Positions 27,001-33,000 of a DNA stretch of 64,000 nucleotides are shown piece by piece. The position numbers were made by a program. How positions within the stretch are numbered: position 1 is the stretch's first letter; the number at the start of each line of letters is the position of its first letter. Source of the DNA: Desulfobacterales bacterium (GTDB taxonomy: Bacteria; Desulfobacterota; Desulfobacteria; Desulfobacterales; UBA5852); the NCBI GenBank assembly GCA_963674755.2, contig CAXXVS010000003.1, positions 2,464,001-2,528,000 on the forward strand, written 5' to 3'.

Positions 27001-30000
27001 AAAAAATAAGGGAGTAATGGGGTCAAGTCTGCCCATGACCCAATTACAAGGTGAGTCATGAGCAGACTTGACCCCAAGAATTGACCCTTCCCGGGATCGC
27101 GGCACTACCTCTGTGATTATTGCGGCTACACCTCCCTTTCTTTTTTTAAAACGGTCTCTATCCGATTAGACCGCTTTCCAATTCGCAAAATCAAAACCGT
27201 TGTTAATGGGGTAAAAGCCGGGACGGAATAAAAGGGGCGATAGGAAAGGGCGGTGCGGTCATAGTAAGTGAAAATCACGGCCGCCGCTACGACCCCGACA
27301 ACCTCCGGCGGAATTCGGCGTCACGCCTTATAAGTTGGGGGAATACCTGGCTTATGCTGCAGGAGATCAACCTGGCGGTTTTTGCGCGTCTCACCCGAAC
27401 CGTCTGTCCATTAAAAAAGAACATATGAATAATGAACTTCCCCGCCGCAAGCGGTCGGGGTATCTCTACGGGATATATTCCCAATTCGCCGCAAGCGGCG
27501 GGGAATTGACCCTTAGAGATTAAAGAACACCGATATTTTCCGCGCAGACATCTGAAACAGGATGTCGATCGCCAATTTTCCTGCAGAGCAGCCGATGTTC
27601 TCCTACGTCTTCATGAAAATCCTGGAAAACCGTGCGAACCGGTATGACCGCGGAATCGATGTCGCAAGTGGGGGGCACGCCAGCAAGATCAGAAAGTTCA
27701 TTGTGGCGCATTACGTCCGGAATGGCATTGCGATGCTGGACATCGGCTGCGGGACCGGCACCCTGGCGGTGGAAGCCGCGTTGGCGGGTGCGACGGTCGC
27801 CGGCATCGACATCTCCCGAGGAATGCTGGCGATCGCACGGCAAAAGGTCGCGCGCCGATCCCTGGAGGGAAGGGTCGCTCTCTACGAAGCGGGGGTCGTC
27901 GAGATAGACACGCTCTTCAAGACCGGTGACTTCGACCTGGTCACGTCCACGCTCGTCATGAGCGAGCTTTACCCGGCTGAACGGCGCTGGGCGCTCAAGC
28001 AAGTCCACGCGCTTCTGAAACCCGGCGGGATCCTCGTCATCGCGGCCGAGGTTTTGCCCAAGAACACCCTCAAACGTTTCCTGTATCGGCTTGTCCGCGC
28101 ACCGTTGTCGATTTTAACCTACCTGATCGCCCAAACCGGAACCAAACCGGTGGCCGGTCTCGATGCGGCGCTGACAGGGGCGGATTTCGATATCCTCGAA
28201 AGACGCTTCTCCTTCCTGGACAGCTTCACGGTGGTCGTCGCAAGAAAAGGCCGTAACCGCACGGCCGCGGCGCAGGATTTCAAAGCGCTCACGCCGGCGG
28301 GGGACATTTCCAGATTGAAGACCATTTGGGATTTCGGCGGCAGGTGGTTTCCCTGCCCGGTGGAACCAGGGCTGCGAATCATCGGCAAGCCCAACAGGGA
28401 TTCCCCGGTGCTGGTGACTGGGAATTTTCATCTGACCGTAAGGCGCGTGGAAAAATCGCTCGCCGGATTGTCGTGCTACCTGCTGGTGGCACCCACAGGC
28501 GGCATCAACGTATGGTGCGGTTCCGTCGGCGGCGAAATGACGGCGCATTCCGTCATCTCCGCGGTCACGACGAGCGGCATTGCCGGCATGGTCGCTCACC
28601 GGCGGATCATCCTGCCCCAGTTGTGTGCCCCCGGCGTCGACGTGACGTCCGTGCACGCCCAAACCGGTTGGCACGTCGTTTTTGGCCCTGTGTATTCCGA
28701 AGACATCCCGGCTTTCCTGGAAACGGGAAACCGGCACGCGCCAAATGCCGCCGCCCGGTTTTCCCTGCCCTTCCGTCTGGAAATGCTATTCTCCATGAAT
28801 TTCCTCGTCTGGCTGGCAGCAGCGCTCGCGTTCTTGGTGTTCAACAGTACCACCGCCCTCTACTTTTCCGCCGTATTCTGGGGGTCCGCTTTGCTGCTCT
28901 ACGCAGCCTACCCGCTGATCCCGGGGAGAAGCGGTTGGATCAAGTCACTGCTGATGGCCGTGGTTGTGTCCGCCGTCATCTTTCTCGGCCGGGCACACGT
29001 CTCGCATTGTGCCGGATGGATTGTTGTGACGGTTTTCGTCAACCTCTGGCTGGGTTTCGACCTGCGCGGCATTGTCAGTGGAGACACTTCGGAAGCGGTG
29101 CTGCTGCTCAACAAACTGCACATCGGCTCTTTCGGGAAATTGCACAAAGCCAGCTCAAAAGAATCGCTGTCGGTACGTTTGGATTACGACCGCTGCACGG
29201 TTTGCGGGCTGTGCGTCCGCCTGTGTCCAGCGAACGCCTTGAGCGAAAAGGATCGCCGCATCACACTGGAACAACCGAAGTGCATGAAATGCGGGGCTTG
29301 CGTGAAACAGTGTCCCGTCGACGCTTTGCGATTCGAATGAAGGGCAATAAACCGGACAGGAATGAAAATGAACCTAAAACAAGAAACGCGTCGACCGCAA
29401 AACCTTCACATCATACCACGCAAGATGGATTTTGACTTTGCCGCGTCATTAAGGAACAGTTGTTATTGGAATGATAATAATGCGGTATCAGCGCATTTTA
29501 TCAATGCCCTTCAGGACACCTTCCCCGAAGGAGAACGCTTTTTTATGGATGCCGCCCGCCAAGCTGCCAAAATTCTGCACCAAAAAGGATTGTTGGATCA
29601 AGAGCTTGAACAGGATCTGCAGGCCTTTTCCATGCAGGAGGCCTCACATGGCTGGCTCCATCATAAATGGTCGCAGGCATTGATTGAAAGCGGATATGCC
29701 AGGTTAGCCGACTATGGCGATCAGCTTCACAGGGCGCACCTCTGGCTAAACCGGTATTTGCCTGTCAAAATGCGTCTTTCGATTACAAGTGCGGCCGAAC
29801 ATTACACCGCTTCAATCGCCTATATGCTGGTGCATATCAAACCCGAGTTGATTACGCAGTCCACCTCCCCCTTTAAAGATATGTTGCTCTATCACGCCAT
29901 GGAAGAACTTGAGCATAAAAGTGTTTGTTTTGATTTGTATCAGAAGTTATCGGGAAATTATCTCTTACGGCTGTTTGGTCTATTGTTCATCACCGTTGAT

Positions 30001-33000
30001 CTTTCAACACTGGTTTTTATGCGCTATCACTATTTAATGCAAAAAGACGGACTTTGGGATGTGAGACACCGGAAGTTGGCATGGCACTTTCTTTTCGGCC
30101 CTAACGGGTTGATTAAATCGATGTGGCCGAGAATCAAAAGTTATATGAAACGTTCTTTTCATCCCTGGCAAACCGATGATCGCCATGAAATGGAATCCGC
30201 TTTTGGTGATTTTATCAGAACATTAGAAATCGTGCCTTTCGAATATTCGTCAGGGCCTCCTGAATAATCAATTTCGCTTCGCAGGTCGGCTATTTTCAGC
30301 CCTTTCATGGATGTCAGGGGTAAACGCGTAATGGGGCCAAGTCTGCCCATGACCCAATTACAAGGTGAGTCATGAGCGGACTTGACCCCAAGAATCCTGA
30401 GCAGACTTGACCCCAAGAATCCTCAAGAATCCACAATATCAGGAACTTAGCTTGGTCCGACCCCAGCTGCCCCCTTTTTGATGAGAAAGATCTTAAGTTT
30501 GCCGTTCTCCAGCCGATATTGCTATTCAAATATATCATTCTGGTTTGAATTCCGACAGTGCTTCCTTGGGCACTTCCGTGAATGATCCGTCTTAGTTGAA
30601 ATACATTGCAACATGGAGAATGGCAAACCAGGCAGTTATTGAAGAAAGGAGAAGTATGTTTAACAAACTGTCATTTCAAAAGAAAATCGGATTCGGATAC
30701 ATCCTAACCGCCCTCGGGATCGTTGCCGCCGCCTTGCTGCAGAACCCGGTTGCCTGGGATATTTCCATGTTGTTGGCAGTGGTTTTCGGGGTCATCGCCT
30801 ATCGTACGGCTTCCGCCCATCAGAGGCGGATGTACTACTTGGAAGGCACTTTAGATGCGGTTCAGTTGCCCATTACCGTCACCGACATGGATATGAAATG
30901 GGTCTTTGTCAACAAAGTAACGGAAAGCCTGCTGGCAATGAACAATCTGGACAAGCAAAGCTGTCTGGGTAAACACTGCTCCAACTGGAAAGCGGATATC
31001 TGCGGGACTGAGAATTGCGGGATCGCCAGCCTTCGAAATGGCATCCCCCAAACCAACTACAACCAGGAATACCCGGACAAGCCCAGCACCTACATGCAAG
31101 TGGACACCAGCTATATTCAGGACAAAAATGGGAAGAACATCGGTCATGTAGAAATCGTCACCAACATCGACGCCCAATACCGGCTTCAAAACACAGTGGA
31201 GAATCTCGCGGCATCAATGGAAGAGACATCCGCATCTTTGGAGGAGATTTCGGCGGTGACGAAGAGCACCGAAGCAACCACAGCCGATGTCGACCGTCTC
31301 ATGCAGAAGGCCGGTCAAACCGTTACCGTCGTCAGCCAAGCCATGGACGACTTGACCCAATCCATGAACAATATCAAAAATGCCAGCGAGGAAACCTCAG
31401 AAATCATCAAAACCATTGATGAGATCGCATTCCAGACCAATTTGCTGGCATTAAATGCCGCCGTGGAAGCCGCCAGGGCCGGAGAGGCGGGAGCCGGTTT
31501 TGCCGTGGTTGCCGACGAAGTAAGGAATCTGGCCATGCGGGCCGCCGAAGCGGCCAGGAATACGGCGGAATTGATCGAAAGCACGGTGAAACAGATAAAT
31601 GACGGTCATAACCAGGTTATTGTGAACAATGACAATTTCAGCAAACTGTCAGAAGTCATTGACCAGACCACGGAGCAGTTCGGCACCATCTCAACTTCAG
31701 CCCGGGAGCAATCACTTGGCATTGAACAAATCAATGTAGCTGTCGCACATGTGGAGCAGGTGCTTATGGAGAACAGCGGTGGCGGTTCATAAAAGCGGCT
31801 ACCAGAGGCGGCGTAGAAGTAATGGCCTATGGATGGAGAATGCCAAAGGCAAGCACAACAAATATCGATGTCTTTGCAGATCTCCATTTTGGTAGCCATA
31901 CGACATGTAGTGCTTATGGTATTCTGACAAATTTTTCAGGTAGCTCCAACGTACCGCAACCAAGGAACTTATAAGGGGCAGGTCTCAACATCTGACATGT
32001 TTTTATGCCCCGTGTTAGATGTTGAGACCTGCCCCCCACATTCCATGCCCCCCCCATTCCACTTGCTGGAGTTGCCCGCGACCGGCACCTAAGTCATCCA
32101 AAGGAAGTGTACAACGATAATAGAAGCTGTTCGTGCTGCATTGCGAGAGTGCTCTGATAAATCGCACGCCAAAGTACTCCAGCGTTTTTTCAAGACCGGT
32201 CCCGGTGAATACGGGGAAGGCGACCAGTTTATAGGCGTCCGGGTCCCTGCAATGAGGAGCGTTGCGCGAAGATACCGGGACTTGTCCTTGACCGACAGGC
32301 TCAACAGTATTTGAAAGGTACGATCAAAGGCCGGAAGTAGAAAACTGAAATTCAGCAATCACCAGGAAGCGGCTGTCCATATTTTGCGCCAGATCGATGT
32401 TCCGTTACATTCCACATCGACTGGTGAGTATACATAGCAATGCGTTTGGGTGGGACGCTCGCTTCGCTGGCGTCCACAACTTTAATGTTAGAATTACTCA
32501 AAAGTAAATATGAGAATCGATTACGAAAAGGCAAAGCTATCAGATTGTGAAGAAATTTATACCGTTAGGGCATCAACATTTTGCAAAATCAGCCTATGCA
32601 AAAATTATCTGCCAGCTATGACAGAGGTTTGTCGTTGTGGGTTAGACTCAGACGACCACTTTCCGAAAATTGCAGCGTAATCGTGTCATAATGTTTGCGG
32701 ATTAACTCTGATCCCAAAAGCTGACGCTTTTTTCCCAGGTTAAGCAGAAGCTCTTGTTGAAGTCCGCCTGCGGTCGGCAATGCTGGAGAAGGGGCAGCGC
32801 CTCCTTTAGCCCCCTGGATGGCCTCACAGCCGGTTTAACAGTATTTTAGATCCTTCCGGCCGCTACATTCCGGAATACCTGCATGTAAAAATGTTCGCCG
32901 GCCTCTACAAACTGCTGTGGCGCGAATGGCAGTTTCCGGATCAGTTCCTCTGGCGAGGACCGCCTTTCGATGGGAGGGCCGAAAGGCGTTTCCTCTTTGT

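Follow-up and report, generated by a model that had tools for sequence, protein, structure and literature searches.

A CpaM methyltransferase joined to an HgcAB-like corrinoid and ferredoxin protein in a Desulfobacterales bacterium: a candidate membrane-anchored methyl relay

The window, a stretch of 64,000 nucleotides from a Desulfobacterales bacterium, carries on its forward strand an uninterrupted open frame at 27562..29340, and translation from the ATG at 27595 gives a protein of 581 amino acids. Most homologues displayed in alignment A2 share the N-terminal MFSY, which backs 27595 as the start. The gene (27595..29340, +) is confirmed as genuine and intact, with three modules in a single chain; this architecture, claimed in the initial annotation, is borne out by Pfam and NCBIfam matches. 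The CpaM model NF043040 matches residues 3-218 with 260.5 bits (cut-off 180; profile positions 1-216 of 216) and the HgcAB_like model NF043039 matches residues 241-579 with 358.2 bits (cut-off 285; positions 1-350 of 350). The AF2 model of the complete chain has a pLDDT of 85.9 and a pTM of 0.83. The feature had been annotated as reaching 30267, but the fusion gene stops at 29340, and 29362..30267 (+) is a separate gene for a predicted metal-dependent hydrolase of 301 amino acids (Pfam Metal_hydrol PF10118, 1.1e-63). The hydrolase is not part of the module. Its gene has a GC content of 0.446, lower than that of the fusion gene (0.599) or the genome (0.579), and none of the genes neighbouring the other 91 loci compared is related to it.

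The CpaM domain (residues 1-218; 27595..28248, +) is a class-I SAM methyltransferase according to its Pfam and NCBIfam matches and residue positions, with Methyltransf_25 (1.5e-18, residues 48-145), Methyltransf_12 (2.6e-17) and Methyltransf_11 (4.8e-17) as the Pfam hits. The translated sequence contains motif I, GCGTG, at residues 51-55 (27745-27759, +) and the acidic residue D72 (27808-27810, +). G51, G55, D72 and D114 are invariant across the 48 fusion proteins of alignment A2, and G51, G53, T54, G55 and D72 across 25 CpaM sequences (20 stand-alone CpaMs and the CpaM domains cut from five fusion proteins). Judged by these residues, the SAM site is conserved. The AF2 model shows strands alternating with helices in a Rossmann fold, and the closest folds are small-molecule and lipid class-I methylases, namely TleD, RebM, phosphatidylethanolamine N-methyltransferase, UbiG and Coq5. 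The second-best family after CpaM is that of the UbiE/MenG-type quinone methylases (TIGR01934, 54.8 bits). To our knowledge, there is no characterised precedent for a class-I Rossmann methyltransferase acting on a protein-bound corrinoid.

The HgcA-type corrinoid-binding domain occupies residues 253-377 (28351..28725, +). It matches Pfam CdhD at residues 253-374 (1.4e-16; profile positions 265-386 of 387), and an alignment of 144 residues with a canonical HgcA shows 42% identity. The cap motif GINVWC lies at residues 303-308 (28501-28518, +), so the cap-helix cysteine is kept, as first claimed, with C308 put forward as the lower ligand of cobalt. W307 and C308 do not vary among the 48 fusion proteins of alignment A2, and 44 stand-alone family members likewise all keep the N, W and C of the cap; AF2 confidence is low for the cap region (residues 303-316). 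The membrane domain (residues 391-487; 28765..29055, +) has four transmembrane helices predicted from the AF2 model, at 391-416, 418-437, 447-464 and 472-487, and the Kyte-Doolittle hydrophobic segments are 395-422, 446-470 and 472-494. Because the number of helices is even, the corrinoid and ferredoxin domains would lie on the same side of the membrane. The HgcB-like 2x[4Fe-4S] ferredoxin tail (residues 527-581; 29173..29340, +) matches Fer4 (4.3e-12), Fer4_10 (3.7e-9, residues 527-574) and Fer4_9 (6e-8, residues 533-577). Its CxxCxxCxxxC motifs begin at C534 and C563, and the eight cluster cysteines are invariant in alignment A2. The chain ends with PVDALRFE, eight residues beyond the second motif, and contains no further cysteine after that motif.

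The family is widespread, as the initial annotation had stated: of 8000 candidates scored, 727 proteins reached E<=1e-5, and the 120 of them that were listed are 581-629 amino acids long, with 46-99% identity and 98-100% query coverage. The module of CpaM and the HgcAB-like protein is common and already catalogued. The statement that the family carries only the name 'methyltransferase domain-containing protein' does not hold, as curated NCBIfam models name both halves and some NCBI records are named CpaM. In all 87 loci that have upstream sequence, CpaM either is fused to the HgcAB-like protein or is encoded by the gene directly upstream; the count does not extend to a basal clade whose 11 representatives have an extra membrane segment at the N-terminus. 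The 87 comprise 16 of 16 genome loci (6 fused, 10 with cpaM directly upstream) and 71 of 71 from metagenomes (fused in 29, with a same-strand cpaM directly upstream in 42); the metagenome loci were drawn from the top 80 among 564 confirmed stretches, a non-random sample in which another 9 end at a contig edge. Among 71 near-full-length representatives, 8 have a full and 2 a partial CpaM. The fused state needs six changes on a tree of 91 rows, at least five of them forced by well-supported branches, and the window protein falls in a clade of 14 rows, all of them fused (SH-aLRT 100). The coupling of CpaM to the HgcAB-like corrinoid protein is strict and has been repeatedly re-invented. Class-I methyltransferases are very common, and the CpaM profile matches weakly at 49 places in the genome, which might suggest that the domains work independently and were joined by chance, through gene order or annotation. 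We regard this as highly improbable given the strict coupling, the independent changes of the fused state, the intact frame, the pTM for the whole chain and the fact that the CpaM cut-off is passed at the fusion gene only.

A complex prediction for a split pair, the corrinoid domain of the L030 protein (residues 1-160) with its own CpaM, scored 0.42 (best of three controls, 0.00). Of 157 solved complexes, 116 reach the mark, as do 2 of 215 pairs that were mismatched; only 18 of the 157, and both of those mismatched pairs, pass at scores of 0.60 or below. At least 48% of contacts agreed between runs, and the partner pLDDT was at least 72. The prediction lends weak support to a contact between the corrinoid domain and CpaM.

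At the 53 canonical hgcA loci, 50 of which have at least 800 nt upstream, no CpaM-profile match exceeded 100 bits (best, 38.1). The initial annotation had seen in the fusion a 'Rosetta stone' that ties a SAM methylase to the HgcA-type corrinoid. Since CpaM is present at all 87 HgcAB-like loci with upstream sequence but at none of the 53 canonical ones, the fusion ties SAM to the paralogue clade ('fused HgcAB') and not to HgcAB itself. The wider idea of a link between SAM and HgcA stays alive through an Asgard-archaeal family, in which a CpaM-like domain is fused to an HgcA-like protein on the HgcA side of a quick tree (SH-aLRT 97, long branch). In the one Asgard locus examined, the fusion gene is followed by that of a separate ferredoxin whose last residues are CCE.

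We propose that the product of this gene is a membrane-anchored, self-contained methyl relay belonging to the CpaM and HgcAB-like family, here within one chain, whose acceptor is probably not Hg(II), and we give this reading a probability of roughly 0.6. The most likely mechanism is methyl transfer from SAM to Co(I) and then from methyl-Co(III) to an acceptor. The C-terminal 2x[4Fe-4S] domain would give low-potential electrons to the corrinoid of the HgcA-like domain and so produce Co(I). The N-terminal class-I methyltransferase would hold SAM and offer its methyl group to Co(I), yielding methyl-Co(III) and SAH, with C308 as the lower ligand. The methyl group might then pass, as a carbanion or a radical, to an acceptor encountered at the membrane domain. 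We infer each of these chemical steps by analogy with Zheng 2024 (PMC11588087), which reports that the methyl group of the purified HgcAB complex comes from SAM and that cysteine ligates methyl-Co(III); the proposed role of C308 is carried over from the same report. The fusion is consistent with this SAM donor, as had been noted, but it neither explains the result nor is needed for it, because the purified two-protein HgcAB takes the methyl group of SAM without such a methylase. For the same reason, CpaM could serve another task.

Hg(II) is not favoured as the acceptor. In the 6.71-Mb genome, a search with the HgcA model found no true hgcA over the cut-off and matched two places, both sub-threshold, the fusion gene (148.8 bits) and, at 64.1 bits, the contig 1 gene for the Wood-Ljungdahl corrinoid protein; the fusion gene is therefore the only HgcA-like gene of the genome, with no separate hgcAB, as the initial annotation had it. 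Same-genus relatives have canonical hgcAB, and together with the cap cysteine, the HgcA-type membrane domain, the identity to canonical HgcA and SAM as the HgcAB donor, this could indicate a true mercury methylase, that is, a single-chain HgcAB carrying its own SAM-loading domain. We consider this quite unlikely. The protein scores 148.4 with the HgcA model NF040863 (cut-off 275) and 47.7 with the HgcB model NF040864 (cut-off 99), and the HgcAB-like clade separates from HgcA with an SH-aLRT of 95. A CC pair within the last six residues is found in 0 of 183 HgcAB-like family members but in 31 of 40 canonical HgcB proteins, and Zheng 2024 cites the HgcB cysteines C73, C94 and C95 as apparently crucial for activity. 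The cap reads NVWCGSVG, whereas the HgcA motifs given in Capo 2022 all end in GK. Pyrococcus furiosus and M. methylutens, the two cultured organisms with reported assays, count as carriers by their fused HgcAB and showed no MeHg above controls when whole cells were assayed (PMC4646819, PMC5893877). Podar 2015 (PMC4646819) does not take the negative P. furiosus assay as proof against Hg methylation by the protein.

No neighbour family recurs at more than 10 of the 92 loci, which fits a self-contained module. The most frequent neighbour is an ABC exporter (10 of 92), a further class-I methylase occurs in 8, and a TetR-like gene lies within 4 kb in 6, by a rough custom-built profile. In the window, a TetR-family gene (25592..26251, +; TetR_N 1e-10, TetR_C_33 2e-11; GC 0.477) lies 1.3 kb upstream of the fusion gene and is a possible but unproven regulator of it. 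This copy lies in a mosaic made up of low-GC genes, transposases and a toxin-antitoxin pair, which is uninformative on function. Neither mer nor ars genes were found among the recurrent neighbours. Along with the exporters, the TetR genes, the membrane domain and the likeness of CpaM to quinone, lipid and small-molecule methylases, this could point to a variant that overlaps with and refines the main reading, in which the same relay serves an organic acceptor such as a membrane lipid, a quinone or a natural product, and not a metal or metalloid. This refinement is tentative, as biosynthetic genes are not a conserved feature of the surroundings of the 92 loci, those of the window copy give no guidance, and metal methylation by HgcA is so far the only known case of Cys-ligated methyl-cobalamin chemistry (Zheng 2024).

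The combination of ferredoxin and SAM is also what reductive reactivation requires. In methionine synthase (MetH), this process re-methylates Co(II) after accidental oxidation. The methyltransferase and ferredoxin could likewise be a repair unit only, with another working donor, for example a methylated substrate or methyl-THF, and Lin 2023 traces HgcAB-type domains to methyl-THF-dependent corrinoid proteins. We think this unlikely, since at the 92 loci no second methyltransferase or donor-side partner is a conserved neighbour of the module and SAM is the working donor of HgcAB (PMC11588087).

The proposed relay resembles class B radical-SAM cobalamin methylases such as TsrM and Fom3 (Zheng 2024) in using SAM, cobalamin and Fe-S clusters for methyl transfer. 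In the window protein, however, both clusters have four-Cys ferredoxin motifs, a Rossmann-fold domain would bind SAM, and no radical-SAM family is among the best 25 of its 28 Pfam matches. The corrinoid-binding domain is homologous to that of AcsC/CdhE, the large subunit of the Wood-Ljungdahl corrinoid iron-sulfur protein (PDB 2h9a, 4djd; E 1e-10 for residues 13-136 of the 341-residue part used as query; NF003195, 84.6 bits). The match is limited to the last ~125 residues of AcsC/CdhE, which has no membrane domain and receives its methyl group from methyl-THF; the genome has its own AcsC/CdhE-type protein on contig 1. Like HgcA/HgcB, the window protein has a cap-Cys corrinoid domain followed by a membrane domain on its C-terminal side, pairs it with a 2x[4Fe-4S] unit and probably obtains the methyl group from SAM. 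The window protein differs from them in its sub-cut-off scores, separate clade, cap sequence, lack of a Cys pair in the tail and dedicated SAM methylase, which the canonical loci lack (0 of 53), and it has four predicted membrane helices, whereas Zheng 2024 gives five for HgcA. The module of NF043040 and NF043039 corresponds to the 'fused HgcAB' of Podar 2015, Gilmour 2018, Capo 2022 and Lin 2023. Excerpts of the mercury literature on this HgcA-HgcB fusion name no methylase partner, and the word 'methyltransferase' does not occur in Podar 2015 or in Capo 2022. The window protein passes both models over their full length and likewise has the cap cysteine, the membrane helices and two Fe-S clusters in a single chain; it carries CpaM within that chain, whereas the unfused HgcAB-like members keep a separate CpaM gene upstream.

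The fusion gene occupies a single open frame at 27562..29340 (+) and encodes 581 aa when read from the ATG at 27595, a start supported by the initial MFSY.. residues that most homologues shown in an alignment of 48 fusion proteins share. The initial annotation had assigned the span 27595-30267 to the fusion; the gene itself covers 27595-29340, and the rest is a second frame, 29362..30267, for a separate hydrolase. That three modules are joined in one chain was confirmed by Pfam and NCBIfam domain matches along the intact 581-aa frame. In Pfam, class-I methyltransferase families match the N-terminal part (Methyltransf_25, 1.5e-18, residues 48-145), CdhD matches residues 253-374 (1.4e-16) with only the last 122 positions of its profile, and 4Fe-4S families match residues 527-579. 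The protein belongs to two NCBIfam families, CpaM (NF043040; 260.5 bits, cut-off 180, profile 1-216 of 216, residues 3-218) and HgcAB-like (NF043039; 358.2 bits, cut-off 285, profile 1-350 of 350, residues 241-579), and thus holds CpaM fused to its HgcAB-like partner. The NCBI model type of NF043040 is 'hypoth_equivalog'; methyl transfer from SAM to the corrinoid is proposed as the putative function of CpaM. The motif coordinates were confirmed by translating the DNA. The class-I SAM site consists of a GxGxG motif I (GCGTG, residues 51-55) and an acidic residue after strand 2 (D72). The CFeSP-type corrinoid domain has the cap-helix motif N-[VI]-W-C (GINVWC, residues 303-308), whose N, W and C are invariant across 44 HgcAB-like members, and it is followed in the same chain by membrane helices (residues 391-487) and 2x[4Fe-4S] motifs, CxxCxxCxxxC at 534 and 563. 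Residues invariant over the 48 fusions include G51, G55, D72 and D114, W307 and C308, and the eight cysteines of the clusters. In a set of 25 CpaM sequences, 20 stand-alone and five taken from fusions, G51, G53, T54, G55 and D72 do not vary.

The family is as large as first claimed: when the whole protein was the query of a word-indexed search, 727 of 8000 scored candidates reached E<=1e-5, and the best 120 of them are 581-629 aa long with the same Pfam make-up. The HgcAB-like part alone (residues 241-581), searched exhaustively, matched 132 representatives at E<=1e-30. Among the 71 of 150 matches listed that span at least 300 query residues, 49 stand alone, eight have a full CpaM, two a partial CpaM and 11 an N-terminal extension, and one is a true HgcA-HgcB fusion. 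The last, P0251 (415 aa), passes the HgcA cut-off of 275 with 300.3 bits and has an HgcB-like tail (95.7 bits), so a protein can be 'fused' without being 'HgcAB-like'. The extension in the 11 is hydrophobic, 100-190 aa long and without a family match. These proteins (P0165, P0177, P0204, P0211, P0213, P0218, P0223, P0231, P0234, P0245 and P0267, with the locus L040) form a clade that is basal among HgcAB-like proteins and has extra membrane helices, without a Pfam match, in place of CpaM. L040, on a 1.8-kb contig, is its only genome locus; no CpaM passes the cut-off in that genome (best 80.6 bits), and a search with P0165 over 151 genomes of that class gave matches in two and no new locus of the clade.

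Gene order was compared with an author-built CpaM profile. In species-representative genomes, CpaM was present at 16/16 HgcAB-like loci with upstream sequence. It was fused in six (Spirochaetota, Desulfobacterales and relatives, Marinimicrobia, Thorarchaeota) and was the gene directly upstream in the other ten, nine in Dehalococcoidia and one in Thermoanaerobaculia. Among 80 metagenome loci, the best of 564 confirmed stretches, 29 were fused, 42 had a same-strand CpaM gene immediately upstream, and nine ran into the end of their contig; CpaM was present at every locus that had 800 nt or more of upstream sequence. Of the 42, 30 were called adjacent by the script, and 12 had stop-to-stop frames that overlapped beyond its limit; in these 12 the CpaM frame stops within about 10 nt of the start of the HgcAB-like match. 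CpaM is therefore fused or directly upstream at 87/87 HgcAB-like loci with upstream sequence, genomes and metagenomes together, in a sample that leaves out the membrane-extension clade. At canonical hgcA loci, a CpaM-profile hit above 100 bits was found in 0/53 (50 of them with 800 nt or more of upstream sequence; best 38.1). The observation of the initial annotation is thus confirmed and its interpretation is partly supported: the tie between a SAM methylase and an HgcA-type corrinoid protein holds for the HgcAB-like family (87/87) but not for canonical hgcA (0/53).

A rival explanation is that the two domains share a chain or a locus and work independently of each other. In a quick IQ-TREE analysis (91 rows, 352 columns; 83 HgcAB-like and eight HgcA), the HgcAB-like rows split from the HgcA rows with an SH-aLRT of 95. 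The fused state changes six times on this tree, and at least five changes are forced by the starred branches; shuffled data gave a mean of 19.2, and 0/500 shuffles were as low. These changes indicate that fusion or fission of CpaM occurred repeatedly, and this is the strongest sequence-level sign of joint function. Direct contact between the partners was addressed by complex prediction with a split pair, the corrinoid domain (residues 1-160) of the L030 protein and its own CpaM. The score was 0.42, against 0.00 for the best of three controls, and lends weak support to a CpaM-corrinoid contact: the mark was reached by 116/157 solved complexes and 2/215 mismatches in the benchmark, and at scores of 0.60 or less by only 18 of the 157 solved complexes plus both passing mismatches. 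At least 48% of the contacts agreed between runs, with a partner pLDDT of at least 72. Within the tree, the window protein and a Spirochaetota MAG share a clade of four rows (support 100), itself nested in a 14-row clade (support 100) in which all members are fused. The copy from another genome of the same order, G026, falls in a different subclade; together with a distribution of 2/41 genomes in the order, this fits patchy inheritance.

A related arrangement was observed in Asgard archaea. One Thorarchaeota MAG has a triple fusion (L041) and a second fusion gene (L181:1489-3222, +, 577 aa), whose CpaM-like domain reaches 128.8 bits, short of the cut-off, and is joined to an HgcA-like protein without ferredoxin. 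The HgcA model matches this second protein at 193.7 bits, with 29-318 of its 325 positions covered. It is directly followed by a separate 2x[4Fe-4S] ferredoxin of 108 aa (L181:3229-3555, +) with several Cys after the second cluster and the end ..SCCE. The two-domain form has many relatives in Asgard archaea, some of which are called CpaM in NCBI records. In a second quick tree the two-domain protein groups with the HgcA rows (SH-aLRT 97), on a branch so long (1.35) that its place is unsure. If the placement on the HgcA side holds, the link with a SAM methylase would extend past the paralogue clade.

In HgcAB, according to Zheng 2024 (PMC11588087), the corrinoid is reduced to Co(I) by the HgcB clusters and methylated by SAM; the resulting methyl-Co(III), with a Cys as ligand, then passes its methyl group to Hg. 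The simplest reading, in which we infer all chemical steps, is that the same relay may operate in the CpaM and HgcAB-like family. The clusters would reduce the corrinoid to Co(I) as in HgcAB, the dedicated Rossmann domain would carry out the SAM methylation step, and the Cys-ligated methyl-Co(III) would then pass its methyl group to an acceptor other than Hg. The AlphaFold2 model of the whole chain, built with the alignment of the 48 fusions (mean pLDDT 85.9, pTM 0.83), has a Rossmann-fold domain (residues 1-218), a weakly modelled linker, a corrinoid domain (253-377) with a low-confidence cap region (303-316), four membrane helices (391-416, 418-437, 447-464 and 472-487; three of them supported by hydropathy) and a ferredoxin domain (527-581). 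With four helices, the corrinoid domain and the ferredoxin domain would both lie on one side of the membrane, presumably in the cytoplasm. Alternatively, SAM might serve for repair only, as it does in methionine synthase; Zheng 2024 assigns SAM the methylation step in HgcAB itself. The acceptor might also be an organic molecule. The best Foldseek matches of the methylase domain are the small-molecule and lipid methyltransferases TleD, RebM, phosphatidylethanolamine N-methyltransferase, UbiG and Coq5; the deposited HgcAB model 9a0b_A ranks 13th (306 columns, 26% identity), and a sequence search of the PDB found no structure of HgcA or CpaM.

A more novel reading, to which we give a probability of roughly one in four, is that CpaM and the HgcAB-like protein would constitute an undescribed enzyme class. 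A Rossmann-fold SAM methylase would load a Cys-ligated corrinoid, invert the polarity of the methyl group and deliver it at the membrane to a non-mercury electrophile, either another metal(loid) or an unreactive lipid or quinone carbon. With the Asgard CpaM-like/HgcA fusions included, which at the locus examined have a ferredoxin with a Cys tail behind them, the same reading would place methylase coupling at the root of the entire HgcA lineage, and canonical HgcAB would have dispensed with it later.

The neighbourhoods give no substrate. No conserved operon partner was found in 92 loci, where the top neighbour family occurs in 10/92; within 4 kb there are ABC exporters in ten loci, a further class-I methylase in eight, TetR regulators in six (window included; rough author-built profile), ABC-2 permeases in five and HlyD in four. 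At this frequency, control by TetR is no general feature of the sampled loci. In the window, the fusion gene has a GC content of 0.599 against 0.579 for the genome, and 42% of same-size windows are equally high or higher, so a recent transfer of the fusion gene was rejected on composition. The genes around it are low in GC (0.45-0.51), in a stretch of about 24000-33000, and it is the neighbours rather than the fusion gene that look foreign. The low-GC neighbours include two DDE transposase genes (18156-19970 and 21613-23133, both -), a TetR regulator (25592-26251, +), a chemotaxis receptor and a HipBA-type toxin-antitoxin pair, the HTH protein at 33568-33906 (+) and the HipA_C kinase at 33896-35155 (+) with an 11-nt overlap. 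Divergent from the TetR gene lies a gene for a 463-aa protein with two FMN_red stretches and flavodoxin-like-fold matches (24058-25449, -). The metal-dependent hydrolase downstream (PF10118, 1.1e-63, 29362-30267) has no counterpart near the module at other loci and is unique to the window locus. Relatives of the class-I methyltransferase at 32846-33415 (-) lie within 4 kb of the module in seven other loci (8/92), in some of them as the gene right after the HgcAB-like one; the enzyme could be a second methylase tied to the system, or its position may be due to chance. Two near-identical copies of a palindromic element of about 70 nt (26619-26690 and 27015-27081) lie in the 1.3 kb that separate the TetR gene from the fusion gene, as does another inverted repeat, of 17 nt (27438-27505); they resemble repeats of the REP or MITE type. 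An Rfam scan of 25400-30700 by E-value gave four matches, all far below the gathering scores, and no riboswitch or other RNA upstream; promoter and terminator scans did not exceed shuffled controls and gave no clear promoter.

The fusion gene was said to be the only HgcA-like gene in the genome, and this stands. The HgcA model has two matches there, both under the cut-off: the fusion gene with 148.8 bits and, with 64.1 bits, the contig-1 corrinoid protein of the Wood-Ljungdahl pathway. Among 49 methyltransferase matches genome-wide, the fusion gene alone passes the CpaM cut-off. The CFeSP genes of the Wood-Ljungdahl pathway lie on contig 1 at 1217551-1224872 (L001 and L002; CdhD 301 and 167 bits), and their presence implies that the organism makes or takes up corrinoids. 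Of 41 genomes of the same order, the window's own and G026 have an HgcAB-like match over the cut-off. The canonical hgcA-hgcB pair is absent from the window's genome, though it is present in close relatives: six genomes (loci L018-L023) have an hgcA and then an hgcB (250-261 bits when one stop codon is read through), namely G001, G003 and G010 of the same genus, and G015, G019 and G035.

Publications have covered fused HgcAB since 2015, and in the portions available to us mercury-methylation surveys set it aside as a non-methylator without an assigned function. The accessible text of Podar 2015, Gilmour 2018, McDaniel 2020, Gionfriddo 2020, Capo 2022 and Lin 2023 does not mention a methylase partner; Lin 2023, in the same portion, trimmed 327 positions from the start of its alignment because they aligned poorly. 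That of Haft & Gwadz 2022 (10.1101/2022.07.06.499078) mentions neither CpaM nor the fusion. In a literature search that excluded subscription journals and supplements, no paper was found on CpaM with corrinoid or 'corrinoid protein-associated methyltransferase', on fused HgcA with a SAM-dependent methyltransferase or, since 2021, on a fused HgcA paralog and arsenic methylation; for 'fused HgcAB' since 2023 only the Lin preprint was found. The statement that the family carries only a generic name was mistaken, as NCBI's curated models already encode the pairing of its two halves. The gain is limited because the curators had paired both families. A dedicated SAM methylase at every locus with upstream sequence, in a single chain in a sizeable minority, nevertheless gives a one-protein hypothesis, SAM to cobalamin to acceptor X, that can be tested.

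The system can be set beside several known ones. The CFeSP large subunit model (NF003195, AcsC/CdhE) gives 84.6 bits against 306 and matches only at profile positions 321-445 of 450, far from full length, which leaves the N-terminal cluster and barrel domains of that subunit unmatched. The best 25 of 138 NCBIfam matches include ArsM-type models, all far under their cut-offs (48.1 against 510, 38.8 against 575 and 38.2 against 240). ArsM arsenite methyltransferases have conserved As-binding cysteines; the sole near-invariant Cys of the methylase domain over the 48 fusions is C52, within motif I. A further, unlikely rival is that the protein is a true Hg methylase. It retains the Cys of the cap helix and a membrane domain of the HgcA type, and Podar 2015 (PMC4646819), in the part available, cautions that its negative assay is no proof that the protein is inactive. 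However, P. furiosus and M. methylutens, which carry fused HgcAB, produced no methylmercury above controls according to the available text (PMC4646819, PMC5893877). The window protein scores 148.4 bits against the cut-off of 275 for HgcA (NF040863) and 47.7 against 99 for HgcB (NF040864). The high-stringency HgcA cap, N[VI]WC[AS][AGS]GK in the accessible part of Capo 2022, ends in GK, whereas the window protein has NVWCGSVG. HgcB has cysteines after the second cluster, a C-terminal pair among them, and three cysteines of this kind are cited by Zheng 2024 (PMC11588087) as apparently crucial; the tail of the window protein, PVDALRFE, has eight residues and no Cys. CC occurs in the last six residues of 0/183 HgcAB-like members against 31/40 canonical HgcB, and 146/166 HgcAB-like members with two motifs have no Cys after the second. 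The combination of CpaM and a tail without Cys could serve surveys as a marker that tells the paralogue from true hgcA, and the sole HgcA-like gene of this genome should not be counted as evidence of mercury methylation. Given the failed models, the cap and the tail, the window protein is not an HgcAB.
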